58,840 nt of DNA from a virus (taxonomy: Duplodnaviria > Caudoviricetes). Location: positions 1-58,840 of the IMG/VR virus record IMGVR_UViG_3300050119_000051; one strand, written 5' to 3'. Made by a program: the position numbers and the translations under genes. The notes beneath the pieces were generated by a model. That model worked only from the letters and a program-made list of their open reading frames with translations. It did not search any database and was not told the origin of the DNA. Positions 17,021 to 36,120 of the stretch are shown one piece after another. How positions within the stretch are numbered: position 1 is the stretch's first letter; each line of letters starts with the position of its first letter.

Positions 17021-17464
17021 ATGCCGGCTACAGCTATCAAACAGCGCGACAGAGCGGAATTCGATCCGAAGCAGGAGATTATCGACAAGATCGGCGATAT
17101 TTCAGCTGTCGAAATCGCTCAAAACGAAGTTCTGATCGCCATCTACCGGCGCCCCGAAAAGACTGCTGGCGGCATTGTGCTGCCATCCTCCAACTTGAAG
17201 GAGGATCAGTATCAGGGAAAGGTCGGACTGGTGCTGAAAATCGGCGCTGCCTGTCGTTTTGAGCGCGAAAATCCGAAGACGGGCGTCAGATATGGCATCC
17301 CGATCGCTATTTATGACTGGGTTGTCGTGCGCCCGAGCGATACATGGTCGCTGGAATTCAACGCACGCCCTGATGCGATGGCCCGCGAGGACTTTTTGTG
17401 GTGCCGACTCGTCTACGACGATCAGATTCGCATGAAAATTCCGTTACCACAGATGGTCTGGTGA
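17021..17464 (+). CDS. GroES/Cpn10-like co-chaperonin
   Basis: EVLI...EKTAGGIVLP mobile loop, GLVLKIG. Confidence 0.8.
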   Translation: MPATAIKQRDRAEFDPKQEIIDKIGDISAVEIAQNEVLIAIYRRPEKTAGGIVLPSSNLKEDQYQGKVGLVLKIGAACRFERENPKTGVRYGIPIAIYDWVVVRPSDTWSLEFNARPDAMAREDFLWCRLVYDDQIRMKIPLPQMVW

Positions 17465-20610: not shown

Positions 20611-21525
20611 ATGGCCATCAATTTAGCTGCGATCAAAGATCTCCTCCTGCCGGGTTTGCGAGGGATCACTGGCAAGTACGAGCAGATCCCGAGCCAGTAC
20701 GACAAAGTTTTCACGAAGTTCAATTCGAAGCTCGCTCTGGAGCGCACGGCCGAGATGCGCTACCTCGGACTCGCGCAGCTCAAGACCGAAGGCGGTCAGA
20801 CGCAGTTCGACAACAACGCCGGTGAGCGCTACGTTTACAATCAGGAGCACGTCGAGATCGCTCTCGGCTATGCGATCACCCGCAAGGCGATCGACGACAA
20901 CCTGTACAAGACCCAGTTTCACCCGTCAAATCTCGGCCTGATGGAGTCTTTCCGCCAGACTCAGGAGGTCTACGCGGCGAACGTACTCAACACCGCGACC
21001 ACGTACAACGCCAATGTCGGCGGCGACGGCGTTGCGCTGTGCGCGACCACGCATCCTGTCGACGGCCTGACGGTCGCCAACACCCCGACCACGCAGGTGG
21101 ATCTGAACGAGTCGACGCTGCTGAACGGAATGGTCGGAATCCGCACGAACTTCCGAGACCAAGCTGGCCTCAAGATGTTCGCGCGCGGTCGCAAGTTGAT
21201 CGTGCCAACGGCGTTAGAGCCGACCGCGATTCGCTTGACCAAGACCGAACTGCGGCCAGGAACTGCCGACAACGATGTCAACGCGATCCTGTCCACGGCG
21301 GGCGGTATCCCAGAAGGCTACCTGGTCATGGACTTCCTGACCTCGTCCTTCTCGTGGTACCTGCTGACGAACATCGCGGGACTGGCGTTCATGGACCGCA
21401 TTCCGTACGAGACGGATATGCAGGTGGACTTCGTGACCGACAATTTGCTTGTTAAAGGGTACTCTCGTTGGAGCTTTAATTACTTCAATTGGCGCGCATT
21501 GTACGGCTCATTCCCGACGTCGTAA
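20611..21525 (+). CDS. Major capsid protein
   Basis: 304 aa; LLLPGLRGITG.Y, IALGYAITRKAIDDNLY, GDGVALC..HP, DFVTDNLLVKG..RWSF...WRALYGS. Confidence 0.85.
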   Translation: MAINLAAIKDLLLPGLRGITGKYEQIPSQYDKVFTKFNSKLALERTAEMRYLGLAQLKTEGGQTQFDNNAGERYVYNQEHVEIALGYAITRKAIDDNLYKTQFHPSNLGLMESFRQTQEVYAANVLNTATTYNANVGGDGVALCATTHPVDGLTVANTPTTQVDLNESTLLNGMVGIRTNFRDQAGLKMFARGRKLIVPTALEPTAIRLTKTELRPGTADNDVNAILSTAGGIPEGYLVMDFLTSSFSWYLLTNIAGLAFMDRIPYETDMQVDFVTDNLLVKGYSRWSFNYFNWRALYGSFPTS

Positions 21526-22514: not shown

Positions 22515-22545
22515 CGGGCCTCTTCGCGAGGCCCGACTCATTTTT
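22515..22545 (+). terminator. Possible terminator hairpin
   Basis: cgggcctc-ttcgc-gaggcccg, with a T-tract 5 nt later. Confidence 0.5.
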
Positions 22546-22554: not shown

Positions 22555-23199
22555 ATGAGACGGATCATTTCAAGTGTAGGGCCACTCGCCGTAGCCGCAG
22601 CAAACAACATCGCGCTGTCTCAGACGCCCGCTGGCGCCGGCGCGCTAACGCTAAATGGATCGCTGGTCACTAGTGGTGTCGCAACCCTAGACAACCCGCG
22701 GCGCGTCCTGATCACGACCGCCGACACGACGCACCTATTCACGGTCACTGGCACCACGCCGACAGGCTCGGTAATCAGCGAGGTTGTGGGTCCCATCACG
22801 ACGTCGGCCTATACCGCGCAGGACTTCGCGACCATCACCTCTGTGACGATCAACGGCGCAGCGACGGCCGCTGTGACGGTGGGTACGAACGGGGTTGGCT
22901 CAACGCCTTGGGTGCGCACGGACGAGTGGGCGGATGCAGCTCTGTCGATCCAGTGCGATGTCGTCGGTACGGTGAACTACACCGTACAAGCGTCGAACGA
23001 TGATCCGAACGACCCGACCAATCCGGTACTGCCGAGCGCGATGACGTGGATCAGCACGAATGATCCAAACGGCGTTGCAGCGACTGTGGCGATTCTGACT
23101 AACTACCTGTTCGCTCCGCAGTACGTGCGCGCACTTTTGAATAGCGGCACAGGGTCTGTGTCGATGACCGTGACTCAGTACAACGTGGTGAATCGATGA
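22555..23199 (+). CDS. Virion structural protein
   Basis: Beta-rich; IALSQTP.GAGALTLNG, VNYTVQ.S.DDPN. Confidence 0.7.
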   Translation: MRRIISSVGPLAVAAANNIALSQTPAGAGALTLNGSLVTSGVATLDNPRRVLITTADTTHLFTVTGTTPTGSVISEVVGPITTSAYTAQDFATITSVTINGAATAAVTVGTNGVGSTPWVRTDEWADAALSIQCDVVGTVNYTVQASNDDPNDPTNPVLPSAMTWISTNDPNGVAATVAILTNYLFAPQYVRALLNSGTGSVSMTVTQYNVVNR

Positions 23200-26054
23200 T
23201 GAAAAATATACTGATTTGGCTGGCGCTGCTGGCTCCAGGACTGGTGCTGGCGCAGCCCGCCAACACCTATGTTCCTGGCCCCTCTCCCTACGCGCCTTCT
23301 GGCACGCCGTCGAACGGCCAGTGCCTAGTCTGGAGCTCGACCGCAGGGCCGAACTCGTCAGGAGCCTGGATCAATGCCGCGTGCGGGGGCGGTAGCGGCA
23401 TCACGGCGCTGACTGGTGTGGTGACTGGAACTGGGCCTGGTAGCACGCCTACGTCGTTTGGGTCTGGCGCGACTGCGGCGCTCCCGGCCGGCGCTCTGCC
23501 TTCCGGCGTGACGACCACAGCCGGCGGCGTGCCGACAGGCAATGCCGACACGGCTACGCTTACTAACAAAACTCAAAGCTACGCGAACAACACGTTCATA
23601 GGCTTCGGCCAGATGATTCCCTGCACGGGGACATTCGCGACCGATACGGCGCTCCTGGCTGCTGCTACCGCGATCGGCGGCAACATCACGCTTACTGGCA
23701 ACTGCGTGGTCAACGCGACCACGGTTATCAATTCCAGCACCCTCCTTAACGGTAACGGTTTCAAGATCACAGCGGCTGCTGCTGCAAACTGGTCAGGCAG
23801 TGTTATCAGAGCTGCATTCAATGCAGCGGACGGCGCCACTAACGTCACGATTGAAAATACAACGTGGGACTGGACCGGCGCTCCGGCCAGCACTCACATC
23901 CTGAATTTCGACGACCCTCCGGCGACGTTCTCCAAGATATCAATCTTAAACAATACTGCGCTGGTGGCTCCTGGGGACTTCGTTGCTCTGGTGAATGTGA
24001 CGGATGCCACGATCACCGGCAACAAGGTCGGCGACGCCACTCATGGATGCGCGGGTGCCTGTTTTGATCTCTGGGGCATTGATACCAACGTCGTGGAGAC
24101 CGGCAATTCCGCCTCAGTGGCCTCTGAGGGCATCGGCTATATCTATACCGGCTTCTTCGATTCCTCCCATCCGAGCAATGCGACCAATATCAATATCTCG
24201 CATAACTTCGCCTATCTGATCGACTCCTCAGGCGGGGTGCCGATCGGCATTTATATTCAAGGCTACGAGACGTCGTGCAGCTTCGGTACGACCAACGATG
24301 CCTACAACACGGTCGCGGACAATCAGATTGTGCTCACGGCCGGTGTCAACGGTCGCCCGATCTGGGTCAACTCCTGCGCCTATTACACCGATGTTCACGA
24401 CAACATCATCACCGGCGATAACGTTACTGCGCAGACTGCTCCGGCTATCGAAGTCAACGGATTATCCGGCGCCTCGATAGGCATTCAGATCCACGACAAC
24501 ATAGGCTATGGCTTCCTTGCCCCAACGACGGGATCGGATGCCGGGGATTTCGTCAATAAGGGCTCCAACGGCTCTATCATCAATAACACGTGCTTTAGCT
24601 GCGGCGCGCTGCTGGTCGGAACTACAGGGGTGCAGTCGAGCACCCGTATCTACGGCAATGACAATGGCACCGGTATTGACACCTTTGTTACCCCGGCTAC
24701 CTTCAGCGCCGCCGCGATACTCAACGGCCCGACTTCTGGTACTGGACTCGACGCCTACGCGCTAGCCTATCTGGCAGGCGGCCATCCGGTAGCGGCTTCT
24801 ACTCTGTCATCGACCAGCGCCCCTACCGTGAATGGGGTCGCTGCCCCGGTTAATCTGTTTAGCTGGGGCATTCCTGTCGGCATTCCGCCGTCCGGCTTCT
24901 TCGCGAACAACGGCGTCTATATCGTAGGCCAAGCCCCCGCTTCTAGCGCCACCGTGACATTTGGCGCGACCAGCGGCAGCACGTCGATGACATTCAGCGC
25001 TGGCACGCCGTTCGCCAACGGTGCAGCCGACATCGGGCGCGTCTTGACGGTTCTCGATACCGTCTCGGTCACGGCAACGAGCGCATCGCCTGCCGTGTTC
25101 ACCGGTGACACGCTGCCCAACGGTACGATCATCACTAACATCGGTGGCACGCCGCCCACCGGGTTCTCTGCAGGGACGTTCTACTACGTCGTCAACACGT
25201 CTGGAAACACGTTCCAACTATCCGCGACGCCAGGTGGCACGGCCATCAATTCGTCGAGCACCGGAACATCGGTCACGGTAGCCTCTTACAAGTTCGGTAC
25301 TTGCACGGCAGCGGTCAGTACAACCGTCTGCACGGCGACGATCAGCGGCGGCACGCTATCAACTGCAGGCGCCTGGGCCAACAATGTCATTTGGCTCTCC
25401 GGCAGTCCGACCACGAACATCAGCGCATTCTCTGTGCCGCTGCCTGCAGCGGTCTTGGCTCATGTTTATTTTAATCTTCCGGTCAATGTCATTTCGGCGG
25501 CCACCGCAGCGGGCATCTATAACGCCACCTGCGCGACCTCGACGTTCTGCATTGTCACCAATAACGCGCTAGCCAGCGGCTTGCCTACGATACCGGGAAG
25601 CCCAACGATCTTTGCAACCACGGGAACGGGCGCATTTTCTCAAAGCACTTCAGCGCTTAACATTCTCACCCTGTCTATCCCCGCTAATAGCTTGGGAGCG
25701 AATGGGTCTCTTGTTTCCGATATCTTTGCAAATCGTGATAGCAATGCAAACACCGTTGCATTACAGACTTTCTACGGAGGGGTGCAAACCGCTCAATTCT
25801 CGGTGGTAAGCGTAGTGTGGTATGGGACGCACCGGACTATAAGGAATTTGGGAGCGACAAATTCTCAAGTGCTGTACTGCGCGACGTGCGTGGGTGCGAT
25901 GACTGACGCTACTACGAATAACAATACGAGTAGTACTCTCACGGTTGACAGCACGCAAGCTCAGAACTTCGTCGTAAAGGGCGCATCGACTACGGCAGCA
26001 ACCGACTGGATTTTCACCCTTGGCGGCACGATTCAAGCGAACTACGCGCCATGA
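23196..26054 (+). CDS. Tailspike/fibre-like protein (beta-helix) with Sec signal peptide
   Basis: MMKNILIWLALLAPGLVLA|QP; fibre motifs TPSNGQCLVW, GITALTG, TLTNKT; Asn/Ile-rich beta-helix repeats; YYVVN...TFQLSATPGG tail module. Confidence 0.75.
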   Translation: MMKNILIWLALLAPGLVLAQPANTYVPGPSPYAPSGTPSNGQCLVWSSTAGPNSSGAWINAACGGGSGITALTGVVTGTGPGSTPTSFGSGATAALPAGALPSGVTTTAGGVPTGNADTATLTNKTQSYANNTFIGFGQMIPCTGTFATDTALLAAATAIGGNITLTGNCVVNATTVINSSTLLNGNGFKITAAAAANWSGSVIRAAFNAADGATNVTIENTTWDWTGAPASTHILNFDDPPATFSKISILNNTALVAPGDFVALVNVTDATITGNKVGDATHGCAGACFDLWGIDTNVVETGNSASVASEGIGYIYTGFFDSSHPSNATNINISHNFAYLIDSSGGVPIGIYIQGYETSCSFGTTNDAYNTVADNQIVLTAGVNGRPIWVNSCAYYTDVHDNIITGDNVTAQTAPAIEVNGLSGASIGIQIHDNIGYGFLAPTTGSDAGDFVNKGSNGSIINNTCFSCGALLVGTTGVQSSTRIYGNDNGTGIDTFVTPATFSAAAILNGPTSGTGLDAYALAYLAGGHPVAASTLSSTSAPTVNGVAAPVNLFSWGIPVGIPPSGFFANNGVYIVGQAPASSATVTFGATSGSTSMTFSAGTPFANGAADIGRVLTVLDTVSVTATSASPAVFTGDTLPNGTIITNIGGTPPTGFSAGTFYYVVNTSGNTFQLSATPGGTAINSSSTGTSVTVASYKFGTCTAAVSTTVCTATISGGTLSTAGAWANNVIWLSGSPTTNISAFSVPLPAAVLAHVYFNLPVNVISAATAAGIYNATCATSTFCIVTNNALASGLPTIPGSPTIFATTGTGAFSQSTSALNILTLSIPANSLGANGSLVSDIFANRDSNANTVALQTFYGGVQTAQFSVVSVVWYGTHRTIRNLGATNSQVLYCATCVGAMTDATTNNNTSSTLTVDSTQAQNFVVKGASTTAATDWIFTLGGTIQANYAP

Positions 26055-26103
26055 TATGCACTGGATGAGGAAGCGAAGCATGCAATTACGAGAGGTCTTG
26101 TTT

Positions 26104-27153
26104 ATGAAACGAGTATTGCTGCTCACGCTCCTATTGCCGCTGACCTGCTTGGCGCAGAGTCCTGGCGTCGGGTTGACGTCGATAACCGCCGCTAGCAATG
26201 TCGTCGGGAACGAACTGATATTCGCTTGGCAACAAGGGAGTGGTGGCAGTGGGGTTAATGCCTGTATCAGCGGGTGGTGCCCGATCACATTCACGCCCGC
26301 TCTGCTGAACACCTATTTCTCTGGTGGTGGTGGTACTCCGGCGAATCCCACCGCAAAGGTCGGAACGTCCGCCGTCAACGGCTCTGCTACCACGTACATG
26401 CGTTCGGATGCCGCGCCGCCTATTGACCTGACGTTCTCGCCGACGTGGACCGGCACGCATACATTTAACGGCACGATCGCAGGAACTGCGCTCTCGGCCT
26501 ACCTAGCTGCTCCTCCTGCGATAGGCGGCACAACGCCAGCGGCTGGCGCCTTCTCAAGTCTGAAGGATACCGGCATTAGCGGTTCGACGCAGTGTTTGCA
26601 TGCGAGTACCGCAGGTATCATATCTGGAACTGGCTCGGATTGCGGCAGCGGCGGTTCTAGCGCATTCAGCACGCTCACCAGTGGCACGAATACGTCGGCT
26701 GCAATGATAGTCGGAAGCGGCGCATCTTTGGCGGCTACCGGATCCGGAAGCATCGCCGCCACGAGTCTCAGCGGCATGACCGCCCCAAGTACGAGTGGGG
26801 TATTAGGTTATCTGGGGCTGCCGGAACCACGCGGAGTGCTTACCGGAGCGGTGACTATCGCGTTGACCGATAACAGCAACGTGCTGCATTTCAATTGCAC
26901 GTCGGCCTGCACGCAAAACATCCCTGCAAATTCAGGAGCTGGCAGCGTCGCGTTCCCGGTCGGTGCGGTGCTAATATTCGACAATGACTGCACCGCGACC
27001 ACAGCTCTCACTGTGACCCTCAGCAGCGATACGATGTACTTAAGTCCACTGCCATCGGTCACCGGTACGCGAAGCGTATCGATCTGCGGGGAGATGTTCG
27101 CGCGCAAAGAAACCTCTACGACTTGGAAAGTGACTGGTACTGGAGTCACATGA
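26104..27153 (+). CDS. Tail-fibre-like protein with Sec signal peptide
   Basis: MKRVLLLTLLLPLTCLA|QS; fibre repeats NGSATTYMRSDAAP and AIGGTTPAAGAF; C-terminal IPANS..VAFPVG...TGTRS...TTWKVTG domain. Confidence 0.75.
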   Translation: MKRVLLLTLLLPLTCLAQSPGVGLTSITAASNVVGNELIFAWQQGSGGSGVNACISGWCPITFTPALLNTYFSGGGGTPANPTAKVGTSAVNGSATTYMRSDAAPPIDLTFSPTWTGTHTFNGTIAGTALSAYLAAPPAIGGTTPAAGAFSSLKDTGISGSTQCLHASTAGIISGTGSDCGSGGSSAFSTLTSGTNTSAAMIVGSGASLAATGSGSIAATSLSGMTAPSTSGVLGYLGLPEPRGVLTGAVTIALTDNSNVLHFNCTSACTQNIPANSGAGSVAFPVGAVLIFDNDCTATTALTVTLSSDTMYLSPLPSVTGTRSVSICGEMFARKETSTTWKVTGTGVT

Positions 27154-29024
27154 TGCGAGGTGTGCTCGCAGCGCTATTGCTGGCAGTCATGGCACTGCCT
27201 GCTCACGCGCAGGCGCTGGCCTCGGCTAGATCGAGTTTTCTGTGGATCACGCCGATGCTCAATGATGCATTCGGGCGCACCAATGGATCTCTGATCTCGC
27301 CCTGGGCCGTGGTCACAGGATTGCCAGCAAACCTGGCCATTTCCAGCACTACGGTGATCACCAGCCATTTGACGGCCGACACGGCGTATTACAACTCTGG
27401 AGCGACGTGGCCTGGCGATCATTATTCCTGCGCCACGGTAGTCAATGCGAGTTCTGATGCCCCCAATCACGGCTACGGAGTCTCGGTGCGCGTCAGCTCG
27501 AGCGCGGAGAGTTTCGATCGAGCCGTGTTCGGCGCGGCCGGTTGGCAGACTCAGGAAGTCGTGGCGGGCGCAGCCACGGATCTTAATAGCTCTACCACCG
27601 TGCAATGGGTAGCAGGGGATCAGGGCTGCTTGTTTGCAGTCGGTTCGACGCTGACTCTATACAAGATTTCAGGCGGCTTATGGACGCAAGTGGATGTTGA
27701 GTCCAGTACGCTCACCGGAGGCTCGCCGGGACTTGCCTATTCCAGTACGAACGTTGCTGGAGGGGCGATCAACAACTGGTATGCCGGCGTGGTCAATACC
27801 AGAGGCCCGCTCGGGGGCGCAGGCGGTACAGCTATAAAGTGGCACCCTGGCCATTACACGCAGTCTGACTTCTACATGACCACGTCGCCGTCATCGGACG
27901 GCACGTTTGATGATATCGACCGTATGGCCGCGGTAGTGGATGGGAGTGGCAATCCTCGATTCAAAGGTTATATGATCCAATTCCATTGGTCTGATATCGA
28001 ACCCACAACGCAGGGTTCGTACAGTGCAGCGATGGTCACGGCGATTAACGCCGTGCGTACCCGATTGCAGACCAACTACACCTATAACGGCGTCGTTAAT
28101 CCGTTTCGCTTGATGATTAGGCTCAGGGTCGAGGCAGGCAACCATTTGCCGGCTTACATTACCAGCGGTATCAGCGGGCTTGGTTCGGATGCCGTTGCGT
28201 GTACGGGCTCTGGGCCAGGCAGTATGGCCCCAGCTTTCTGGCGCGCCCCAGTCATGAGCGCATATATCAACATGCTCAATTACCTCGGCTCGCTGTACGA
28301 CTCTGACCTACACGTAGAGGCCATCGCAGCGCTGGAAGAAGCCTCCATCGCTTACACGTCGCCCCCTGGGGACTACTCGGGAGCGGCCTTCTACGCTCAA
28401 TTTCAGAACATGGTGAATGGTCTATCGAGTTGGCCCACTACGCTCAAGACCCCCAATCTGAACTTCGGTCCCACGGGCACTAATCAGGCTTGGGTCAACA
28501 CGGCCACTGAATTCCTCGCTCCTAAGCTTGGTTGGGGCATTGGTGGACCGGATGTGCTGACTGCGACCGGCGGTTACGGGGAGACGTGGGGAGAACTGGC
28601 ATTCTATGGAGGCAGCGGTTCGGATAGCATCAACAGGCAGGGACATACCAGTGAAATCATCGGCATCGAAGACGACGTGTACCTTTGGACCGCACAAACT
28701 TCAGCCGGCGATGAATCCTATGGCTATAGCACCCTGCACCCCACGCACATGGTATGGATGATCTTTCCAGAGTCTGAATACAGCGGGGTTGCTGGTAATT
28801 CCTCACAGTGGTGGGAGACCGGAACGGTGCCGGCATTGCAAGCGGTGAATTTTCGTCTAGCGGCTAGTGCGCTGCCTTGCCCGAGCGCCTATAACAGCGT
28901 CGGCTGCAACACGATGGGCTTTGGTTGGTCGTGGATAGTGATGTTGCCGATGCTGGCGCGGCGACGCCGAGGCTTATATGAAGCCGCCAACGATGACGAT
29001 TTCGAGCAGCGCGTCAGAGCGTAG
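27150..29024 (+). CDS. Exported protein: lectin-like beta-sandwich + glycoside-hydrolase-like barrel + C-terminal hydrophobic/Arg anchor
   Basis: MMRGVLAALLLAVMALPAHA|QA; KWHPGHY, FHWSDIEP, LEEAS, GIGGPDV; GFGWSWIVMLPMLARRRR. Confidence 0.65.
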   Translation: MMRGVLAALLLAVMALPAHAQALASARSSFLWITPMLNDAFGRTNGSLISPWAVVTGLPANLAISSTTVITSHLTADTAYYNSGATWPGDHYSCATVVNASSDAPNHGYGVSVRVSSSAESFDRAVFGAAGWQTQEVVAGAATDLNSSTTVQWVAGDQGCLFAVGSTLTLYKISGGLWTQVDVESSTLTGGSPGLAYSSTNVAGGAINNWYAGVVNTRGPLGGAGGTAIKWHPGHYTQSDFYMTTSPSSDGTFDDIDRMAAVVDGSGNPRFKGYMIQFHWSDIEPTTQGSYSAAMVTAINAVRTRLQTNYTYNGVVNPFRLMIRLRVEAGNHLPAYITSGISGLGSDAVACTGSGPGSMAPAFWRAPVMSAYINMLNYLGSLYDSDLHVEAIAALEEASIAYTSPPGDYSGAAFYAQFQNMVNGLSSWPTTLKTPNLNFGPTGTNQAWVNTATEFLAPKLGWGIGGPDVLTATGGYGETWGELAFYGGSGSDSINRQGHTSEIIGIEDDVYLWTAQTSAGDESYGYSTLHPTHMVWMIFPESEYSGVAGNSSQWWETGTVPALQAVNFRLAASALPCPSAYNSVGCNTMGFGWSWIVMLPMLARRRRGLYEAANDDDFEQRVRA

Positions 29025-29030: not shown

Positions 29031-29807
29031 ATGACCGGCACAGTCATCGTCGGAGGCGGCAGTAATAATACCGTCGAGGTAGCGGCGACCGGTACGCAGG
29101 GACCGGGCGGACAAAATCCGCTGAATACTTCTGGCACGTACAACTTTGCGCCGAGCATGGGCGAGGCGGTTTTGTTCGCATACGGCTCATGCGGCGTTCG
29201 CAGGACGGCTTTAACTCAACAGCATTTCGAAGATGCACGTTTTGCGACCAATATGCTGATGGGGCGCTGGAGCGCGGACGGCGTCAATCTATGGGCGGTG
29301 GACTTACAAAAGATTCCGCTGGTACAGGGCCAGTCAACGTACCAAGTTCCGTACAACACAATCGTGATGCTGGACACTTACTACACAATTATTAACGGTG
29401 GAGAAGAAATAGATCGGATTATGACTCCGGTAAGTCGTACGGAGTACGCCAACTACCCGCGTAAGCAGCAACAGGGAAGCCCTAGTATATTCTGGATGGA
29501 CAGATTGTTATCGCCAACGGTCACTATCTGGCCAGTGCCAAATGGTCAGCAGGCGTGCTTGAAGTATTACAGGCTGCGCCAGATTCAAGATTCAAACCTA
29601 CAGAATGGGCAGAATGTAGAAATACCGCCGTACTTTCTTGAGAGCTATGTATACGGTCTTGCAACACGGCTTGCAGGCATTTGGGCACCAGAGCGAGCCG
29701 TTGGATTGAAGGCCATGGCCGACGAAGCATGGGGAATTGCGACGCGACAAAACACAGAGACGGCTAACCTGTATATTTCACCGATGATCAGCGGGTATTT
29801 TCGGTAA
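29031..29807 (+). CDS. Head-tail adaptor / tail tubular-like protein
   Basis: TSGTYNF, WSADGVNLW, SRTEYANYP.KQQQG.P, WPVP, YGLATRLA. Confidence 0.7.
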   Translation: MTGTVIVGGGSNNTVEVAATGTQGPGGQNPLNTSGTYNFAPSMGEAVLFAYGSCGVRRTALTQQHFEDARFATNMLMGRWSADGVNLWAVDLQKIPLVQGQSTYQVPYNTIVMLDTYYTIINGGEEIDRIMTPVSRTEYANYPRKQQQGSPSIFWMDRLLSPTVTIWPVPNGQQACLKYYRLRQIQDSNLQNGQNVEIPPYFLESYVYGLATRLAGIWAPERAVGLKAMADEAWGIATRQNTETANLYISPMISGYFR

Positions 29808-30538
29808 TGGCCTATGCCAGCAGAAGCGGAAGGGCGCGGACTTCTACAAAGAAGCCAAGTGCCTTCTATGTCTGCGATCGTTGCGGAATTTGGGGAAATC
29901 GCGTGGACGGCCAGTGGCAAATGGAATGGCGCGGCACCAGCCTTCAAAATCTGTGGATCCTAGTTTGTCGCCGATGTTTAGACGTGCCTCAGGAGCAACT
30001 TCGCGCGATACAACTCCCAGCTGATCCTGTTCCAATTTGGCAGCCTCGCATCGAAAACTTCGCCGATGCCGAAACTGACTACCGCTCAACACTTCCGGGA
30101 ACCGTTGATCCGATCACCGGCATTCCAATCCCGTCAACGACACTGCGCGTCACGGAGGATTGCCAGAATCGCATCACGCAGCCGATCGGCATACCTGACG
30201 GACTTGAACAAAACGCCGTCATGCCGTACAACGGCGGCGTGCAAAAGGCGTTCGGTGTGCCTCTCTCACTGTTGTCAGTCATCGCCAACGGCACTGCAAC
30301 AATCGCCGTGACGTGCTCCAAGCCGCATGGCCTGCAGACCGATGGACAGATATCGGCTGAGGGACTGACGGCCGCCAACGGCTTCTACAGCGTGATCGTG
30401 GTCAGCGCGACGGCGTTTACATATATGATGGCGTCGAATGTAGCCGCGGCTTCGCTGTTGACGCCGACGACCAGGATTGTGACCGCGCTAGTCGGGTTGC
30501 CGTACGGTTCACCGGCCATTCCCACTGGAGTGATTTGA
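29807..30538 (+). CDS. Structural protein with N-terminal Zn-finger-like CxxC pairs
   Basis: CDRCG...VCRRCLDVPQEQL; C-terminal HGL..G tail module. Confidence 0.65.
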   Translation: MAYASRSGRARTSTKKPSAFYVCDRCGIWGNRVDGQWQMEWRGTSLQNLWILVCRRCLDVPQEQLRAIQLPADPVPIWQPRIENFADAETDYRSTLPGTVDPITGIPIPSTTLRVTEDCQNRITQPIGIPDGLEQNAVMPYNGGVQKAFGVPLSLLSVIANGTATIAVTCSKPHGLQTDGQISAEGLTAANGFYSVIVVSATAFTYMMASNVAAASLLTPTTRIVTALVGLPYGSPAIPTGVI

Positions 30539-31038
30539 TGGCCACGACGACCATATTGCAACTCCCTCAGATTGTTGGCGGCGCAACGGGCCTCGAGCAA
30601 TTAGAAGTCGCGCAGCCGACGACTCTGCCTAATGGGCAGCCAGGATGGGTGTCTATACGACTATCGTCCGCGCAGATCGCGGCTCTTGCGTCACAGATCG
30701 CGGCTACGGGGCCGACGGGCGTTATATACGATTCTCCAGCCGCCGGAGCGCATAACGACTACACCGTAAATAACCAAATGGGTCCGACCGTCGGCTTCAT
30801 TGAACTTACGCCCACTGCGAACTGCAACATCACTGGGTTGAAAGCTGGACTCGACGGGCAACTTGTCGTAATCACAAATCTTGCCGCCGGCTTCAGCGCC
30901 ACTCTGAACGCGCTCAACGCGGGCTCGCAGGCTGCGAATCAGCTCAGAATGGTTCAGGACTTCGCCTTGATACAGAACGATTCGAAGTCGTTCAAGTATT
31001 CGATCACCATTGGAAAATGGATAGCGATAGAGTTCTGA
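30535..31038 (+). CDS. Putative tail fibre/appendage protein
   Basis: NITGLKAGLDGQLVVITN motif; TIxQLP N-terminus. Confidence 0.55.
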   Translation: MMATTTILQLPQIVGGATGLEQLEVAQPTTLPNGQPGWVSIRLSSAQIAALASQIAATGPTGVIYDSPAAGAHNDYTVNNQMGPTVGFIELTPTANCNITGLKAGLDGQLVVITNLAAGFSATLNALNAGSQAANQLRMVQDFALIQNDSKSFKYSITIGKWIAIEF

Positions 31039-31039
31039 T

Positions 31040-31828
31040 GTGACCGCGCCAGCTACCAACCCGCTGTCCTACAACGCCTACGTCCAACAGCTTGGCGTGA
31101 TGGCGGTTGCGCTGACTCAGGAGACTGCCGGCGTTTACAGCTTCGTCGATGAGCCGCTGCAGACGGCGTTACTGCAGGCGCTAGGATACGCCGAGTTGAG
31201 GATTCAGCGCGACATAGATTTCCTGAATGCCCGCGCGTCGAATACTTATGCGCTTACGGCCGGCAGTAACCTGTTGTCGATTCCGATCAACGATTTTCTC
31301 ATCGTCGAAACACTTGAGATCACGCAGAACAATGGCACTCAAGTCGTCAACAGCATGCCGCTTACGCCCGTGTCTCGCGAACTTATCCAGAACTGTTATT
31401 CAGGACTGGCGCAGGCATCGCAGCCCCGATTTTTTGCCATGGCGGGAGACAATTTTGGTGACGGCGCGAATTTGAACATCAACGTGCTGCTTGGGCCAAC
31501 GCCTAACTTCGCGTATCAGGTACGCGTCAATGGCGTGATTCGCTTGCCGTCGCTGGCGAAGTTTGCTGTATCAGGAGTTGCTGACACCTCGTACACGTAT
31601 ATCTCGGAATTCCTGCCGGACATGCTGATGATGGCTAGCCTGATTTATATCTCGGCGTTCCAGCGTAACTTCGGTGTAGCGAGTTCAGATCCTGACTCTG
31701 GGATGACATTCGAAAAACAATATCAAGCGCTGAGGTTGGGGGCCATTTCGGAAGAGAATAGAAAGAAGTTTCAGGGAAGCGCTTGGTCTTCTTATTCCAC
31801 GCCAGTTGCGGCAACCCCGACAAGATAG
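31040..31828 (+). CDS. Head-tail connector / tail tubular protein A-like
   Basis: YAELRIQRDIDF, LGPTPN.AY, LPDMLMMASL, FEKQYQAL. Confidence 0.7.
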   Translation: MTAPATNPLSYNAYVQQLGVMAVALTQETAGVYSFVDEPLQTALLQALGYAELRIQRDIDFLNARASNTYALTAGSNLLSIPINDFLIVETLEITQNNGTQVVNSMPLTPVSRELIQNCYSGLAQASQPRFFAMAGDNFGDGANLNINVLLGPTPNFAYQVRVNGVIRLPSLAKFAVSGVADTSYTYISEFLPDMLMMASLIYISAFQRNFGVASSDPDSGMTFEKQYQALRLGAISEENRKKFQGSAWSSYSTPVAATPTR

Positions 31829-31834: not shown

Positions 31835-32539
31835 ATGCCTGTGTGTAGAACATGCGGTGTAGAGAAATCGGAGGATCTGTTCTCTATAAGAAAAAGAACA
31901 GCCAAAATAGTTACGCAATGCAAGGAATGCAAAAATGTCGCGATAAACGCGTGGAATAAGGCGCACCCAGAACGGCGCGCAGAGACTTCTCATAGGAACT
32001 ATGCAAAGACAGTAGGGAAAGACCCGGAAGACTGTCGCGGACGCATAGGAAGCAAAGAATGGGAGACGCGAAAGAAACCAAACAAAACGCCATACTATCA
32101 CCGCAACAAGGAGAAGGTTAAAGCGCAAGTAACGGCCAGGGCGCAAAACAAAGTGGCTGAGATAAGCGCATATCATAAGAAATGGCGCACATTGAACGCT
32201 GAGAAAAAAGCGGAGAACGATCGCCAGTGGCGCCTAGGGAATCCTGATCTAGTAGCCCTGTATTCCAATACCAGGCGCGCTCGTAAGCTTAAGTCTCAGC
32301 CTCAATGGTTGACTGAGGTTCAGTTGGCTGATATGCGAGAGTATTACGAGATTGCAGCTGCTCAACAAAAACTGACCGGCGGCAAATTTCACGTTGATCA
32401 TATATTCCCACTCCATGGAGCGAAATTCTGCGGGCTGCACGTACCGTGGAATCTACAAATACTGACAAAAACAGAAAACCTCCAGAAAGGTCGATCGGTG
32501 CCGCAGGAATATGCGCACATGCTCGACTATGTGCGGTGA
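31835..32539 (+). CDS. Free-standing HNH homing endonuclease
   Basis: FHVDHIFPL...CGLHVPWNLQIL...NLQK; N-terminal CxxC; A-rich relative to neighbours. Confidence 0.85.
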   Translation: MPVCRTCGVEKSEDLFSIRKRTAKIVTQCKECKNVAINAWNKAHPERRAETSHRNYAKTVGKDPEDCRGRIGSKEWETRKKPNKTPYYHRNKEKVKAQVTARAQNKVAEISAYHKKWRTLNAEKKAENDRQWRLGNPDLVALYSNTRRARKLKSQPQWLTEVQLADMREYYEIAAAQQKLTGGKFHVDHIFPLHGAKFCGLHVPWNLQILTKTENLQKGRSVPQEYAHMLDYVR

Positions 32540-32542: not shown

Positions 32543-34579
32543 ATGCCTCACGCTATGTTGCGCCTAGCGGGCGGGGTCAATACGACTGAGACGGCAGCCC
32601 TCAATGAAAACTCTGGGATTTCGTCCTCTAACCTGATCCGATATTTTTACGATGTAAACGGCCCGGCGCTCGTTGGCAAACTCGGCGGCTGGAGCAAATT
32701 TTTTCCTTCCGCAATGGCCGCCATCGTGCGCGCGTTGTGGGCATGGGAGGATATCAACGATAACGCAAATCTGGCATTAGGCACGCAGGTATTTCCATCT
32801 GGCGCACGCTCTCAGTTAGCCGTCATCACAGCCGGTGCGCTCACAGATATCACGCCTGTTCAGGCGGTAAGCGCGATTCCACCGGTTGTGGTTGCAACTG
32901 CTATTGGAAGCCCGCTGATTGCGGTGGTAGACACCACCACTATCGGTATCACCAATACCTGCAGCGTGTACATCGCGACGCAAATCGCCGTTGGCGGACT
33001 GGTGCTGTTTGGTCTTTATCCCTGCGACGAATTGGGCTCCATTTATTCCAACAGTTACACGCTCTACGCCCGAGATATCCTAGGAAATCTGAGACTAGCG
33101 ACAACCACGGCCGCGGCCACTCTCCCAACATTTAGTACGCAGCCGCAGTCCAATGCCGTCGCCGTCACATTGACTGCGCACGGTTATGCGCCTGGTACTA
33201 CCTTCCCTATCCTTTTTGCCACGCTGGTGGGGGGCATAACGCTACAGGGAAACTATGTTATCCAGACCGTTGTCGACGCCAATACATTCACGATCCAATC
33301 CACATCTGCGGCGACTTCTGCTGCTACCGCAACATTAAACGGCGGCATTGCCGTTTTTGTGTACAACGGCTTGGGCGCGACGCCGCCATCCGCGCTACCA
33401 ATCGAGTCCGATGACTGGACACTGGATAACTTCGGACAGGATTTGATCGCGTGCCCCACGACTTCCCCAGGGTTGCCGGGAGGCATTTCCTATCAGCCGA
33501 TCTATCTCTGGTCGCCGACCAGTCAGCCGAATGCCGCAGTGATTCCGCAGGCGCCTGCGGTCAACGACGGGATATTCGTCGCAATGCCGCAGCGTCAGAT
33601 CATCGCGTGGGGATCGACTGAAACCGGCATCCAGGATCCGCTACTCATCAACTGGTGCGATGTCAATAATCCCAATCAATGGATTGCGCTCCCGACCAAT
33701 CAGGCAGGCTCATTTCGGATCCCAAAAGGCTCTCGCATCGTGGGCTGCGTTCAAGGGCCTCAGCAGGCCCTTGTCTGGACGAACATCGACGTGTGGTCAA
33801 TGCAGTTCATCGGCACTCCGTACGTCTATTCGTTCAATGAAATTGGTACCGGCTGCGGTCTGATTGCGCGCAAAGCCGCTGCGTCCCTGAATGGCATTTA
33901 TTACTGGATGGGACCATCACAGTTTTATAGCTTGGGCGGAGAGGGAGTGTTGCCCATACCATGCCCGGTGTGGGATGTTGTCTTTCAGAATCTTAATCAG
34001 GGCGCATTGTCGAAAATTCGCGTTGCGGTCAATTCCAGATTTGGCGAAATCCAGTGGTTCTATCCGTCAGCCAATGGCGGCGGCGAAGTCGATTCATACG
34101 TCAAGTACAATGTCTACATGAACGTATGGGATTATGGATCACTCGGACGAACCGCCTGGGTAGATCAATCGGTACTCGGGCCGCCAATCGGCGCGGATCC
34201 TGGGTCGTTATTGCTGTACCAGCATGAGACCTCTAACGATGCAGACGGCGTGGCGATGTTACCTTTCCTTCAGACTGGATATTTTGCGTTGAGTGAAGGG
34301 GATTTTCAGACGTTTGTGGATCTCGTTTGGCCAGACATGCGCTGGGGACAATGGTCGGAGGCGCAGAATGCGACGGTGCAAATCTCGTTCATTGTCGTCA
34401 ACTATCCCGGTGATACGCCGGTCACTTACGGCCCGTATTCAGTGACGCAGGCGACCAAATATTTCAACACGCGGCTGCGCGGGAGGCTCGTCGCGGTCAG
34501 GATATCGAGCAGTGATCTGGGCACTTGGTGGCGTATCGGTGCCCTGCGGTATCGTTATGCGCCGGACGGACGGTTCTAA
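32543..34579 (+). CDS. Tail tubular protein B / P22 gp10-like stabilisation protein
   Basis: WTLDNFGQDL, QDPLLINWCD, TNQAGSFRI, EIQWFYPS, GSLGRTAWVD, RLRGR, WRIG..RY...DGR. Confidence 0.8.
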   Translation: MPHAMLRLAGGVNTTETAALNENSGISSSNLIRYFYDVNGPALVGKLGGWSKFFPSAMAAIVRALWAWEDINDNANLALGTQVFPSGARSQLAVITAGALTDITPVQAVSAIPPVVVATAIGSPLIAVVDTTTIGITNTCSVYIATQIAVGGLVLFGLYPCDELGSIYSNSYTLYARDILGNLRLATTTAAATLPTFSTQPQSNAVAVTLTAHGYAPGTTFPILFATLVGGITLQGNYVIQTVVDANTFTIQSTSAATSAATATLNGGIAVFVYNGLGATPPSALPIESDDWTLDNFGQDLIACPTTSPGLPGGISYQPIYLWSPTSQPNAAVIPQAPAVNDGIFVAMPQRQIIAWGSTETGIQDPLLINWCDVNNPNQWIALPTNQAGSFRIPKGSRIVGCVQGPQQALVWTNIDVWSMQFIGTPYVYSFNEIGTGCGLIARKAAASLNGIYYWMGPSQFYSLGGEGVLPIPCPVWDVVFQNLNQGALSKIRVAVNSRFGEIQWFYPSANGGGEVDSYVKYNVYMNVWDYGSLGRTAWVDQSVLGPPIGADPGSLLLYQHETSNDADGVAMLPFLQTGYFALSEGDFQTFVDLVWPDMRWGQWSEAQNATVQISFIVVNYPGDTPVTYGPYSVTQATKYFNTRLRGRLVAVRISSSDLGTWWRIGALRYRYAPDGRF

Positions 34580-35036: not shown

Positions 35037-35948
35037 ATGGATCCGATAACCATAGCTCTCCACACTGCGCGCAAACGGCGCGATGATGGCGGCTCTGTTG
35101 AGACCACACGGACCGTCGGCGCGAAATTCCACGCCGGGCCGATTCACAGCGGGGTGGCGGGGCGTACCGATCATCTGCCGATCACGGTACAGTCAGGGTC
35201 ATATGTCCTGCCAGCCGATATCGTGAGTGCCGGCGGCTCGGGCAATACGCTCGCCGGCTTTAAAGTCCTGCGCCGAACCTTCGGCGGCGAGCCGTACGGC
35301 GCTGGCAGCGCGCCCTACGGCCAGAACAAGGGCGTCTATGGACTGCCGGTCACATATGCCCGCGGCGGCCGCGCCCGAGCCGCCGGCATCCTGTTCCTGT
35401 CGCCAGACAAGGAAGTGCTCCTGATGCGCCGGACAGAGGACGATGGCCACAAGGGCGAATGGGCCTTCCCGGCCGGTGGCATCAAAAAGGACGAAACACC
35501 TGATGCGGCTGCCAAGCGTGAAACCGGCGAGGAAACCGGGTACAAACACGAGGGCGGACTGTCGCCTTTCATGCACAGCGAGGATAAAAATCTAGACTTT
35601 ACAACGTACTTAGCTCACTCTCAGCGCTTCGATCCGAAGCTGAATCATGAGCATGATGGAGCCAGATGGGTGACTCTAGATGAGGCCAAAAAACTACAGC
35701 TGCATCCGGGGGTCAAGGCTGCGCTCGAGAAACTCGCCACGCGTGCTGGTAAGGCCCACGGCGGTGAATCATCGGGCGTGCCGATCGTCGCGGCCGGCGG
35801 CGAATGGGTTATCAGCCCGGAGCATGTGCGACGCGTCGGTAACGGCGACATCGATATGGGACACCGAGTGCTCGATGCGTTCGTACACCGGGTCCGCAAG
35901 GAACTGATCGGGACGCTCAGCAAGCTGCCAGGACCGCGCCGTGACTGA
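35037..35948 (+). CDS. Virion-module protein with an inserted Nudix hydrolase domain
   Basis: Nudix box GGIKKDETPDAAAKRETGEETG between YARGG and KAHGG; flanks GRTDHLP...GSYVLPADIVS and VPIVAAGGEWVI. Confidence 0.8.
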   Translation: MDPITIALHTARKRRDDGGSVETTRTVGAKFHAGPIHSGVAGRTDHLPITVQSGSYVLPADIVSAGGSGNTLAGFKVLRRTFGGEPYGAGSAPYGQNKGVYGLPVTYARGGRARAAGILFLSPDKEVLLMRRTEDDGHKGEWAFPAGGIKKDETPDAAAKRETGEETGYKHEGGLSPFMHSEDKNLDFTTYLAHSQRFDPKLNHEHDGARWVTLDEAKKLQLHPGVKAALEKLATRAGKAHGGESSGVPIVAAGGEWVISPEHVRRVGNGDIDMGHRVLDAFVHRVRKELIGTLSKLPGPRRD

Positions 35949-36120
35949 CTCACCTTACACAGAAAACATGTTCGACATCGCCGTCCATCTGGCGACCAAG
36001 ATCATGGATGCACCGGACGTCTGGACGGCACACGACTTGACGTACTTGATCGAACGCGAACTCGACAAGTACATCGAGGAAGGTAGCTTGCGGTTTGCAA
36101 AACCGGTGAATCGGCGATGA
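35941..36120 (+). CDS. Hypothetical protein (59 aa, not in ORF track)
   Basis: MTDSPYTENMFDIAVHLATKIMDAPDVW...; overlaps both neighbours. Confidence 0.45.
   Translation: MTDSPYTENMFDIAVHLATKIMDAPDVWTAHDLTYLIERELDKYIEEGSLRFAKPVNRR

Follow-up and report, generated by a model that had tools for sequence, protein, structure and literature searches.

Predicted Sec signal peptides on fibre-like proteins and a putative anchored enzyme from the variable fibre locus of an SU10-like podovirus

Three consecutive late genes of an uncultured phage known here from sequence alone, which we call A, B and C, each begin with a predicted signal peptide of canonical Sec type, as a preliminary description had claimed and as the N-terminal features bear out. 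The whole stretch of DNA analysed, which we call the window, spans a complete IMG/VR virus record from end to end (58,840 bp). The reading that we favour, and on which we place about even weight, is that A and B are exported, periplasm-folded, variable receptor-binding proteins that would join the virion at or after lysis, and that C is an exported, anchored enzyme. The preliminary description had proposed an exported, disulfide-bonded set of three fibre- or spike-like proteins, unusual for a tailed phage. At the sequence level, five independent lines support export and disulfide bonding (the signals, their pattern as add-ons among relatives, paired cysteines, the topology of the anchors and the signal-bearing relatives of C), while the fibre or spike part of the proposal holds for A and B only. 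The genes and their main elements are listed below; the signal peptides were called from N-terminal features, a heuristic of our own and a check of the start codons.

23196..26054, + strand: gene A, 952 aa; signal peptide, type-1 motif and fibre repeats, central beta-helix-like domain, variable C-terminal domain
23196..23252, + strand: predicted Sec signal peptide of A, 19 aa, VLA|Q
23262..23279, + strand: type-1 N-terminal motif of A, NTYVPG, four residues past the predicted cleavage site
26104..27153, + strand: gene B, 349 aa; fibre-type protein with 95 homologues sharing fibre modules
26104..26154, + strand: predicted Sec signal peptide of B, 17 aa, CLA|Q
26173..26238, + strand: type-2-like fibre N-terminal module of B, residues 24-45 (GL to QQG), six residues past the predicted cleavage site
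27150..29024, + strand: gene C, 624 aa; signal peptide, lectin-like region (approximately 21-228), GH42-like TIM-barrel-type region (approximately 229-586), C-terminal anchor
27150..27209, + strand: predicted Sec signal peptide of C, 20 aa, AHA|Q
28914..28970, + strand: C-terminal hydrophobic stretch of C (residues 589-603) with RRRR (604-607), predicted membrane anchor

The heuristic, which is crude and is not SignalP, looked for a basic n-region, an uncharged hydrophobic h-region about 10-15 residues long and a cleavage site with small amino acids at -3 and -1. All three proteins have one or two basic residues, an uncharged hydrophobic core of 13-15 residues and a small-x-small site followed by Gln. 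Within the window the heuristic was positive for A, B and C, for three further proteins and for one small membrane protein; among the conserved virion proteins (capsid, adaptors, nozzle and others) of 80 related loci, it was positive for none of 233. It does give false or borderline calls, such as a score of 4.48 for the weakly hydrophobic N-terminus encoded by the gene at 22555-23199. A Tat signal was rejected, there being no RR in the N-termini MMKN, MKR and MMRG, as was a lipoprotein signal for signal peptidase II, since position +1 is Gln in all three and there is no lipobox Cys; a lipobox-like sequence, LIAGC, occurs within the window only in the product of 49704-50762.

The start of A is an ATG that overlaps the stop codon of the upstream gene (22555-23199) as ATGA. 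For B, the long open reading frame opens at 26020, and the start that gives the N-terminus quoted in the preliminary description is the ATG at 26104, with GAGG 8 nt upstream. C starts at the ATG at 27150, which overlaps the stop of B as ATGA and has GGAG 4 nt upstream. The possibility, raised in the same description, that the true starts lie downstream of the hydrophobic segments was dropped, because no in-frame start codon was found just behind the segment in A, B or C; the next ones come at codon 75 (A), at codons 24 and 99 (B) and at codon 36 (C). All six homologues of A (P0002-P0007) begin, as judged by eye, with a basic residue and then a hydrophobic segment, and the orthologue of B in locus L002 also has a signal peptide. 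Across homologues the signals are conserved as a feature and not in sequence; the signal-like segments in L007 and L027 have no canonical cleavage site. Given the signals, together with the add-on pattern, cysteines and topology described below, the predicted export of A, B and C is well supported, and their signal peptides would probably be cleaved.

The surrounding genes place the cassette within a virion module.

22555..23199, + strand: conserved virion-module gene, 214 aa, directly upstream of the variable fibre cassette
29031..29807, + strand: SU10-type adaptor paralogue 1 (PF24175, E = 2.2e-9), closing the cassette 7 nt after C
30535..31038, + strand: small signal-less protein, 167 aa, with an N-terminus resembling the type-2 fibre module by eye
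31040..31828, + strand: SU10-type adaptor paralogue 2 (PF24175, E = 5.6e-11)
32543..34579, + strand: large conserved virion structural protein (phrog_3287, E = 3e-63)

Genes A-C are tightly coupled within the late operon by the ATGA overlaps and the short gap before the adaptor gene, and no promoter- or terminator-like excess was found within them. The gene at 22555-23199 is present in most close relatives, at 40-79% identity, and its homologue directly adjoins adaptor 1 in 10 loci. The slot between these two genes is hypervariable across the 80 loci related via the capsid protein, being empty in 10 of them and filled by a cassette of 5-9 kb in others; the phage is an SU10-like podovirus, and A and B lie in its hypervariable fibre locus. 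We call the product of 32543-34579 the nozzle because its gene comes after the adaptor genes, as does gp17 in SU10; no nozzle-specific match was obtained for it. The small 30535-31038 product is a candidate cytoplasmic fibre stub, and its orthologue in L005 matched the type-2 module pattern. This signal-less protein could also be the actual virion fibre, a point that counts against giving A and B that part.

Elsewhere in the complete genome we saw no further large gene for a fibre or spike. Outside the virion module there are three further predicted exported proteins, one of them beta-helix-like by eye, so that secreted cargo appears to be a habit of this genome, and the 694-aa product of 54195-56279 looks like exported carbohydrate-active cargo. 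A, B and C matched no family in Pfam, PHROG or NCBIfam (the NCBIfam run covered 10 proteins), and PDB sequence and profile searches with A, B, C, alignments of C and of A, and the protein P0015 gave no hits; the naming of A and B as fibres therefore rests on position, motifs and homologues. There was no nucleotide match among GenBank phages, and GenBank phage proteins gave two short matches only for A and B, in uncultured phages, and none for C. The capsid-protein relatives have been binned into MAGs of four phyla and do not indicate a host; the relatives of C point to Gammaproteobacteria or Terriglobales MAGs, which may reflect gene capture.

The motifs quoted in the preliminary description (TLTNKT, GITALTG, AIGGTTPAAGAF and TYMRSDAAP) and its cysteine hairpins are all present in the translations of A-C. 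In A, a conserved central beta-helix-like domain (about residues 109-492) is followed by a variable C-terminal domain. The beta-helix that had been claimed for this protein comes solely from the language-model feature neighbours and the structure neighbours of its homologue P0002 in the Atlas: the former scored 0.88, under the bar of 0.9, and the latter are GH28 or pectate lyase proteins with TM-scores, by row, of 0.62-0.76. On our favoured reading A is a beta-helix spike and probably a polysaccharide depolymerase. Signals are carried by 30 of the 50 representatives that match the beta-helix of A. A search of 185,579 species genomes with one single pattern did not find the family of A, a weak negative. 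Paralogy between A and the other beta-helix-like protein, P0015, was considered and dropped (BLASTP E = 0.18). We propose that B is a fibre. Signal-less fibres of related loci have the same type-2 module at residues 4-7, and in P0021, P0024, P0027, P0031, P0054, P0064 and P0066 it follows a signal peptide; signals are present in 40 of the 95 homologues of B.

C was the one gene for which the assignment as fibre- or spike-like did not stand. It is without fibre-type repeats and consists instead of lectin-like and glycoside-hydrolase-like domains and an RRRR-flanked anchor, which is followed by a 17-aa acidic tail predicted to be cytoplasmic. It has five cysteines. Among its cellular relatives the best placed, at 65% identity, is an enzyme that carries a signal and lies within a polysaccharide-synthesis cluster; cellular relatives of the catalytic domain likewise begin with signal-like segments, and the cellular homologues lack the C-terminal anchor, stopping at a conserved GCNT motif. 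The catalytic domain of C itself matched no profile in Pfam, PHROGs or NCBIfam; its homologue P0013 scored 22.1 bits against PF02449 (cut-off 21), and the Atlas structure neighbours of the homologue P0011 are GH42- or DUF4832-like, with TM-scores of 0.57-0.72. A PEP-CTERM or other sorting signal was rejected, there being no NCBIfam family, no PEP motif and a 17-aa tail past the basic cluster. C seems to be a GH42-like enzyme with a membrane anchor, its gene probably taken up from a polysaccharide cluster of a host. Two signal-bearing fibre homologues, P0007 and P0054, end like C in a membrane span and then basic residues, in their case directly behind a Peptidase_S74 chaperone domain, an arrangement that in all three proteins makes sense only with export of the main part of the chain. 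A Peptidase_S74 domain is present in P0007, P0036 and P0054, and no match to it was found in A, B or C.

The same slot in relatives also holds fibres without a signal peptide and with few or no cysteines. A type-1 motif ([NL]AY[IVL]PG-like; background rate 0.043 per 60 aa) lies at residues 4-10 in eight signal-less fibres at the locus and approximately 5-12 residues past the predicted cleavage site in seven signal-bearing ones. These shared N-terminal elements are similarities at the level of motifs, 5-25 residues long, to which a docking role is given by analogy with SU10. In another lineage, a 349-aa protein of L095 matches phrog_12796, a PHROG tail fibre (E = 9e-31), beginning at its residue 24, and the signal-less homologue in L094 does so from residue 3. 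The tail fibre gp82 of Aeromonas phage vB_AsaM-56, a cultured phage, aligns from its residue 11, and that of Pseudomonas phage Orisa01 from its residue 7; the L095 protein is a bona fide PHROG tail-fibre member with a signal extension of approximately 20 residues. A search for cultivable phages with a signal-bearing fibre gave only partial matches for the 971-aa protein of L095 and none for P0054. On a tree of capsid proteins the signal-bearing state needs six changes, at least three of them forced by well-supported branches. Among the sisters L027 and L033 (support 100/99) the flanks are homologous and only the fibre gene differs, being signal-like in the former (889 aa, 10 Cys) and signal-less in the latter (606 aa, no Cys): sister phages with nearly identical capsid proteins exchange one fibre type for another. 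Clusters of two or three signal-bearing, cysteine-rich fibre genes are found in L002, L017, L093 and L095, and the signal-bearing pattern recurs in unrelated phage lineages, on at least four phage backbones. The signal-bearing spike of L082 sits between terminase and portal genes, in a moron-like position. These comparisons support the view that the predicted signals are add-ons relative to homologous or positionally equivalent signal-less fibres.

The survey of signal peptides at the locus against cysteine content, which the preliminary description had proposed, came out as predicted. Among deduplicated proteins of at least 250 aa, the median cysteine content was 1.79% in the 13 with a signal and 0.29% in the 99 without (Mann-Whitney p = 7e-5, not corrected for relatedness); none of the former was free of cysteine, compared with 31 of the latter. 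Among homologues of B the medians were 1.87% with a signal (n = 40) and 0.61% without (n = 55), and a QCL...CG hairpin was present in 19 and five of them, respectively. The mature part has an even number of cysteines in 11 of the 13 signal-bearing locus proteins. Mature A has 16, as eight near-neighbour pairs (43/63, 143/170, 285/289, 361/394, 466/469, 703/712, 779/785 and 895/898), and mature B has eight, as four such pairs (54/59, 164/180, 265/269 and 296/328). Cysteines are more abundant in the fibres that carry a signal, where they mostly come in even numbers and in near-neighbour pairs, a pattern from which disulfide formation in A and B would be expected.

From the signals, motifs, locus, cysteine pattern and topology, all of which can be read directly from the sequence and its comparison with relatives, we infer the following route. 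A and B would be made late, along with the other virion genes, and would pass unfolded through the host Sec translocon, signal peptidase I cutting them before the Gln. In the oxidising periplasm they would fold, probably trimerise and form local disulfide bonds, cleavage having uncovered short N-terminal docking motifs in the position that these occupy at the extreme N-terminus of the signal-less fibres of relatives. Particles built in the cytoplasm, with no fibres or only some of them, would meet the periplasmic fibres once the two compartments are joined by holin lesions and lysis, or afterwards in the lysate, and the fibres would attach at that point. This attachment is the most conjectural step, and we regard the case for it as about evenly balanced. 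Attachment after lysis must compete with dilution, which counts against it. C would be exported as a lectin joined to a GH42-like glycosidase, its C-terminal anchor keeping it at the inner membrane on the outer side, and would most likely cut the host's own exopolysaccharide or O-antigen-type polymer during infection.

A different account, which we consider less likely, is that A, B and C are all secreted accessory proteins outside the virion: fibre-derived depolymerases or adhesins, lodged in a recombination-prone fibre locus and acting from the periplasm, the cell surface or the medium. They might strip or remodel exopolysaccharide or O-antigen, destroy receptors so that progeny are not trapped, or condition neighbours, the virion using signal-less parts only (the 167-aa protein of 30535-31038, the nozzle and the needle). 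For C, with its anchor, its relative in a polysaccharide-synthesis cluster and the GH42-like signals of its catalytic domain, this is indeed the simpler reading, so that for at least one gene of the three a non-virion enzyme is the more economical account. The three further exported proteins elsewhere in the genome, the L082 spike outside any tail module and the absence of a tail-fibre family match for A and B point the same way. There is also precedent. The WceF protein of Pantoea stewartii, as its description has it, has a tailspike-like beta-helix fold and an N-terminal export signal and works on exopolysaccharide, a cellular exported enzyme retaining a head-binding-like domain (PMC7949094); WceF counts against placing A and B on the virion, because it shows that a tailspike-like protein can keep such a domain as an exported enzyme. 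It differs in being chromosomal, in a polysaccharide cluster, and in having a Tat signal that exports a folded protein, whereas A-C are phage-encoded, in a virion operon, with Sec-type signals and no RR. In a survey of soil prophage CAZymes, signal peptides (SignalP) were reported in 5% (PMC13507307), and C and the 54195-56279 protein look like such exported carbohydrate-active cargo; the survey, by the account it gives, does not cover A and B, because tail fibres and structural proteins were left out by design. Secretion outside the virion, however, does not explain why N-terminal motifs of virion type should follow the cleavage site at a short, fixed spacing, nor why L027 and L033 exchange a signal-like and a signal-less fibre in an identical slot with conserved flanks; the L095 protein belongs to a tail-fibre family, the genes are translationally coupled to structural genes, and the window would then encode no large receptor-binding protein at all.

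The same products might serve as both virion-bound receptor-binding proteins and free exported enzymes, the exported pool clearing polysaccharide around the lysing cell while a fraction decorates particles. In some phages one depolymerase is known to occur both free and bound to the virion, through alternative starts or excess synthesis, and such dual use agrees with every comparative observation. We nevertheless think it improbable, because no sequence feature specifically demands two pools and neither an internal start nor a frameshift signal was found following the signal peptides. Less probable still is that the hydrophobic N-termini are uncleaved tethers, docking plugs or inner-membrane holders, or that the genes were mis-started, an idea that draws on the poor cleavage sites of the L007 and L027 segments, on the heuristic nature of our signal calls for A, B and C and on the SAR endolysins of phages, which are described as having uncleaved, Sec-dependent N-terminal anchors (PMC6116005). 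The cores in A, B and C are Leu-rich, with textbook small-x-small sites, and not Gly/Ala-rich as in the SAR type; the signals are kept as a feature rather than a sequence; alternative start codons are missing just behind the segments; and signal-less relatives on a near-identical chassis show the hydrophobic segment to be unneeded for docking.

If A and B are exported receptor-binding proteins that join the virion, they resemble the fibres and tailspikes of short-tailed phages (the long and short fibres of SU10, the P22 tailspike) in lying in a variable locus by SU10-type adaptor and nozzle genes and in having modular N-terminal elements, variable distal domains, fibre repeats and, as a lead only, a beta-helix-like centre. 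The fibres of SU10 are reported to dock through their first residues (PMC9509320). The known proteins have no signal peptide and fold in the cytoplasm, whereas A and B carry signals and match no described fibre family; and compared with signal-less fibres at the same locus, which often have no cysteines, A and B have many, in pairs. The g3p of Ff phages is a virion receptor-binding protein with a Sec signal, periplasmic disulfides and a C-terminal inner-membrane anchor until use, a topology like that of C, P0007 and P0054; A and B have no such anchor, and there is no sequence relationship. Ff virions assemble at the membrane and are extruded through it, whereas the particles of tailed phages are built in the cytoplasm and leave by lysis. 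Precedents for late phage proteins that use Sec are described among endolysins: the signal peptide of Lys44 from fOg44 is cleaved, and P1 and phage 21 have SAR endolysins (PMC6116005); these likewise use the host Sec system and are stored outside the cytoplasm until lysis, but as lysis enzymes and not as virion or receptor-binding parts. In the literature outside subscription journals and supplementary files, we found nothing on Sec signal peptides of tailed-phage tail fibres.

The question is a general one, because signals occur in 30 of 50 beta-helix representatives, in 40 of 95 B-type proteins and on at least four phage backbones. We suggest, with a confidence that stops a little short of even, that there is a widespread, undescribed class of tailed-phage receptor-binding proteins that fold and form disulfides in the periplasm, are added outside the cytoplasm at or after lysis and can be exchanged, on one and the same virion chassis, for ordinary fibres that are cytoplasmic and free of cysteine. 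In certain members, trimerisation would be staged by a self-cleaving S74 chaperone tethered to the inner membrane at its outer face. In the textbook view, the assembly of tailed phages is entirely cytoplasmic. If the proposed route is true, the last step of virion assembly would take place at or after lysis, and phage infectivity would come to depend on host factors such as SecYEG, signal peptidase and DsbA/DsbC. Fibres stabilised by disulfides would offer a new stock of robust modules for binding or depolymerisation, fibre engineering and host-range prediction would have to weigh signal peptides, and genuine fibres would be escaping those annotation pipelines that set aside proteins with a signal as non-structural.

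The preliminary description placed Sec signal peptides on three consecutive virion-operon genes, here called A (23196-26054), B (from the ATG at 26104 to 27153) and C (27150-29024), all on the plus strand, and this holds in the translations. Each N-terminus has one or two basic residues, an uncharged hydrophobic core of 13-15 residues and a small-x-small motif followed by Gln; twin arginines and lipoboxes are absent from all three, and a true start further downstream was rejected, as none of the hydrophobic segments has a start codon immediately behind it. Signal calls were made with a crude in-house heuristic, in places supplemented by eye, which was positive for A, B and C, for three further window proteins and one small membrane protein, and for none of 233 conserved virion proteins from 80 related loci. 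The sequence motifs and cysteine hairpins listed at the outset were likewise all found, although the fibre-type repeats then ascribed to all three genes are missing from C. The genes are tightly coupled, with ATGA overlaps between A and the conserved virion-module gene directly upstream (22555-23199, hereafter gene 22555) and between B and C, 7 nt separating C from the first adaptor gene, and Shine–Dalgarno-like sequences before B and C. Export of A-C is predicted with good support and is very probable; cleavage would leave mature proteins beginning at Gln20 (A), Gln18 (B) and Gln21 (C), possibly as pyroglutamate. A strong terminator-like hairpin at 22515-22535 (plus strand; 8 pairs, 7 of them G-C, then a T-run) lies just 5' of gene 22555 and may keep the fibre and tail genes less strongly transcribed than the capsid genes.

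The heuristic also predicts three exported proteins outside the virion module:

48579-49457, plus strand, signal peptide and, by eye, two FN3-like domains
54195-56279, minus strand, 694-aa protein with a signal peptide and, by eye, a beta-helix-like region
49704-50762, minus strand, predicted lipoprotein with the lipobox LIAGC

All three contain long poly-serine linkers, and none matched a Pfam or NCBIfam family. The 694-aa protein was considered as a relative of A, but showed no detectable kinship (BLASTP E = 0.18).

The genome, a single complete uncultured virus record of 58,840 bp in IMG/VR, is, by its portal, adaptors and other family matches, that of an SU10-like short-tailed phage. No tRNA genes were found in the 58,840-bp window, and nothing among 50,697 GenBank phage records matched it at the nucleotide level. 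Family searches identified replication genes (helicases, a VapE-type primase and a resolvase) and the following:

10313-12124, terminase
12681-15056, SU10-type portal
20611-21525, major capsid protein
29031-29807 and 31040-31828, two SU10-type adaptor paralogues (PF24175, E = 2e-9 and 6e-11)
32543-34579, large virion structural protein, taken as the nozzle
36684-41531, 1615-aa protein with an internal Peptidase_S74 domain
45961-47804, candidate lysis cassette with a DUF5675 protein (PF18925, E = 8e-16; endolysin candidate) and three small genes

The fibres of SU10 are described as docking to adaptor and nozzle through their first residues (PMC9509320). The window has two adaptor paralogues, compared with one in SU10, and these might assemble into one mixed ring or two separate ones, which would offer two sets of fibre docking sites. 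In the 1615-aa protein the Peptidase_S74 domain (residues 369-417) lies away from the C-terminus and is followed by about 1200 residues of low-complexity Ala/Gly/Pro-rich sequence; a needle-like N-terminal part may cleave itself from an ejection-protein-like rest. Of the three small genes at 45961-47804, which is likely to be a lysis cassette, two encode hydrophobic stretches resembling membrane spans, and one weakly matches a holin family. A GroES-like co-chaperonin gene (17021-17464; Cpn10, E = 2e-4; phrog_3188) lies just 5' of the scaffold and capsid genes. The HNH/endonuclease VII-like gene between the second adaptor and the nozzle gene (31835-32539; phrog_1035, E = 1e-19) is lacking at this position in several relatives, an absence suggestive of a homing endonuclease; the virion module also holds a NUDIX hydrolase (35037-35948; PF00293, E = 3e-21) and an acetyltransferase-like gene with a weak match (36117-36650; phrog_1249, E = 1e-4).

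Relatives were collected by a capsid-protein search, which gave 80 loci at 78-92% identity, and conserved markers were mapped onto them. The homologue of gene 22555 directly adjoins the first adaptor gene in 10 of the 80; in others a cassette of 5-9 kb follows it, and in still others the fibre genes lie between the 30535-type gene and the second adaptor. A and B lie in this variable fibre locus. The first cassette gene is signal-bearing in the window, L002, L017, L007, L009, L026 and, by eye, L027, and signal-less in L008, L010/L012, L015, L019, L033 and L034. Common to both forms is a short motif of the type [NL]AY[IVL]PG (type-1; NTYVPG in A), with a background rate of 0.043 per 60 residues, which occupies residues 4-10 in the signal-less proteins and lies some 5-12 residues past the predicted cleavage site in the signal-bearing ones. 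Just behind the signals of B and its L002 orthologue stands a second element, L/I-P...G-x-E-L...Q-x-G. It directly follows the initiator Met in signal-less fibres of 13 related loci, stands behind signal peptides in the homologues P0021, P0024, P0027, P0031, P0054, P0064 and P0066, and is matched by the L005 orthologue of the small protein 30535-31038, whose window copy looks alike by eye. These shared motifs are short, but because the same elements stand either at the start of a fibre or just past a cleavage site, cleavage of A and B would leave mature proteins that begin as ordinary fibres do.

A small signal-less protein encoded at 43912-44370 matches phrog_1084 and, more weakly, L-shaped tail fibre assembly; its first 32 residues contain several cysteines, two CC doublets among them, and it has homologues within the fibre cassettes of L007 and L008. 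Two conserved extra genes, one encoding a protein that starts M..KPQLV.QDF.GEHNKDL and the other methyltransferase-like by eye, are absent from the signal-bearing cassettes of the window, L002 and L017, and occur in these signal-less cassettes:

L008, 18851-20162
L010, 18890-20283
L014, 8597-10674
L019, L035, L037 and L038

Six changes are needed to place the signal-bearing type-1 state on a 34-row capsid-protein tree, and well-supported branches force at least three of them. L027 and L033 are sisters on this tree (support 100/99), with homologous flanking genes of about 78% nucleotide identity and a second fibre gene that is signal-less in both, whereas the first fibre gene has been replaced outright: 889 aa with a signal-like segment and 10 cysteines in L027, 606 aa with neither signal nor cysteine in L033. 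Signal-bearing and signal-less fibres appear to be interchangeable on one chassis, and this swap, our strongest argument, suggests that signal-bearing proteins occupy the virion site that signal-less ones use.

A survey of signal peptides against cysteine content at this locus had been proposed, and in the relatives cysteine was indeed higher with a signal. For locus proteins of 250 aa or more, after deduplication, the median was 1.79% in the 13 signal-bearing and 0.29% in the remaining 99 (Mann–Whitney p = 7e-5, which, the rows being related, is no clean probability); cysteine-free proteins numbered 0 of 13 and 31 of 99, respectively, and the mature part held an even number of cysteines in 11 of the 13. 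Cysteine is absent altogether from six signal-less type-1 fibres (606-881 aa). The 16 cysteines of mature A and the eight of mature B all lie in near-neighbour pairs whose members are 3-33 residues apart. Among 95 homologues of B, 40 were flagged as signal-bearing and at least four more looked so by eye; the median cysteine content was 1.87% in the flagged 40, compared with 0.61% in the other 55, a QCL...CG hairpin occurred in 19 of 40 as against 5 of 55, and Gln followed the predicted cleavage site in 22 of the 40, all these counts being non-independent because the sequences are related.

Neither A nor B matched a described family. The centre of A (approximately residues 109-492) is 42% identical to proteins of L082 and L083, and might be a beta-helix, a lead that comes from its homologue P0002, whose structural neighbours in the Atlas are GH28 or pectate-lyase beta-helices and whose nearest clusters there are viral pectate-lyase-superfamily proteins (score 0.88, a lead only). 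Residues 229-586 of C are 65-70% identical to 410-aa signal-bearing MAG proteins. One of these, P0011, is encoded on a Steroidobacteraceae MAG contig in a polysaccharide-synthesis cluster (two GT2, PMT_2-type, GT4/GT1, two AT3 acyltransferases, WecG and Wzy_C-type); its Atlas neighbours are GH42- or DUF4832-like barrels, and the full-length homologue P0013 barely exceeds the Pfam GH42 threshold (22.1 bits against 21). What C has beyond the cellular proteins is a lectin-like N-domain, duplicated in P0013, and a C-terminal anchor. On the simplest reading, C would be a captured host glycosidase that sits on the periplasmic side of the inner membrane and acts from there on envelope polysaccharide.

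At their C-termini, C and the two signal-bearing fibres P0007 and P0054 have a hydrophobic span and then RRRR, RRRQ or RRK; a basic tail facing the cytoplasm makes sense only if the protein body lies outside the membrane. In P0007 and P0054 the span directly follows the Peptidase_S74 chaperone domain, which suggests that trimerisation of such fibres is staged on the membrane; self-cleavage would then free the fibre.

Signal-bearing fibres extend beyond the relatives of this phage. All six homologues of A found by word search start with signal-like segments, judged by eye, and a profile search against 1.84 billion representatives yielded 145 matches. Of 50 taken as matching the candidate beta-helix region of A, 30 were flagged and about six more looked signal-bearing by eye, the signal-less ones having classic fibre N-termini; 15 of 39 matching the C-terminal domain of A alone were flagged. 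L082 encodes a signal-bearing 862-aa spike with an S74-like C-terminus between terminase and portal genes, and L093 a cluster of three signal-bearing, cysteine-rich fibre genes, two with 20 cysteines each, followed by lysis-like genes. L095 has a similar cluster of three, the first of which matches the PHROG tail-fibre family phrog_12796 (E = 9e-31) from residue 24, at profile position 5. A signal-less homologue in L094, behind baseplate-wedge genes, matches this family from residue 3. In tblastn against GenBank phages, all alignments among the matches listed begin at query residue 24 or later, with 10 residues before the aligned part in the tail fibre of Aeromonas phage vB_AsaM-56 and six in Pseudomonas phage Orisa01. 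The L095 protein is a member of an accepted tail-fibre family with a predicted signal peptide as a simple extension, and the pattern appears to be general across phage backbones.

A search of the full-text literature, with subscription papers and supplementary files outside its scope, found no description of Sec signal peptides on tailed-phage tail fibres. The nearest published items are WceF, which is tailspike-like and exported but described as cellular (PMC7949094), endolysins, for which late Sec export of phage proteins is reported as established (PMC6116005), and a survey of soil prophage CAZymes, which gives 5% with signal peptides and excluded tail fibres (PMC13507307).

Whether A and B join virions is a question on which the sequences allow several answers. 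That A-C are purely secreted, non-virion proteins we consider rather unlikely, although C is predicted to be an enzyme with a membrane anchor, three more exported proteins are encoded elsewhere in the genome, the L082 spike sits in a moron-like place, A and B lack described families, and WceF offers the example of a tailspike-like protein serving as an exported enzyme of cells (PMC7949094). Against it, and in favour of virion joining, stand the conserved N-terminal elements with their correct spacing behind the cleavage site, the exchange of like for like within one chassis, the L095 member of a PHROG tail-fibre family, and the lack of another large fibre gene in this complete genome. Dual use, with virion-bound and free exported forms side by side, is improbable, and N-termini that stay uncleaved or do not serve export are more improbable still. 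We give an even chance to A and B being exported and then joined to virions.

Such joining could occur at lysis. Holin lesions merge the cytoplasmic and periplasmic compartments and the fibres of several phages attach spontaneously to particles in vitro, so attachment at that stage is physically plausible: once the compartments had merged, exported fibres would attach to the particles. The closest functional analogue is the g3p of filamentous phages.
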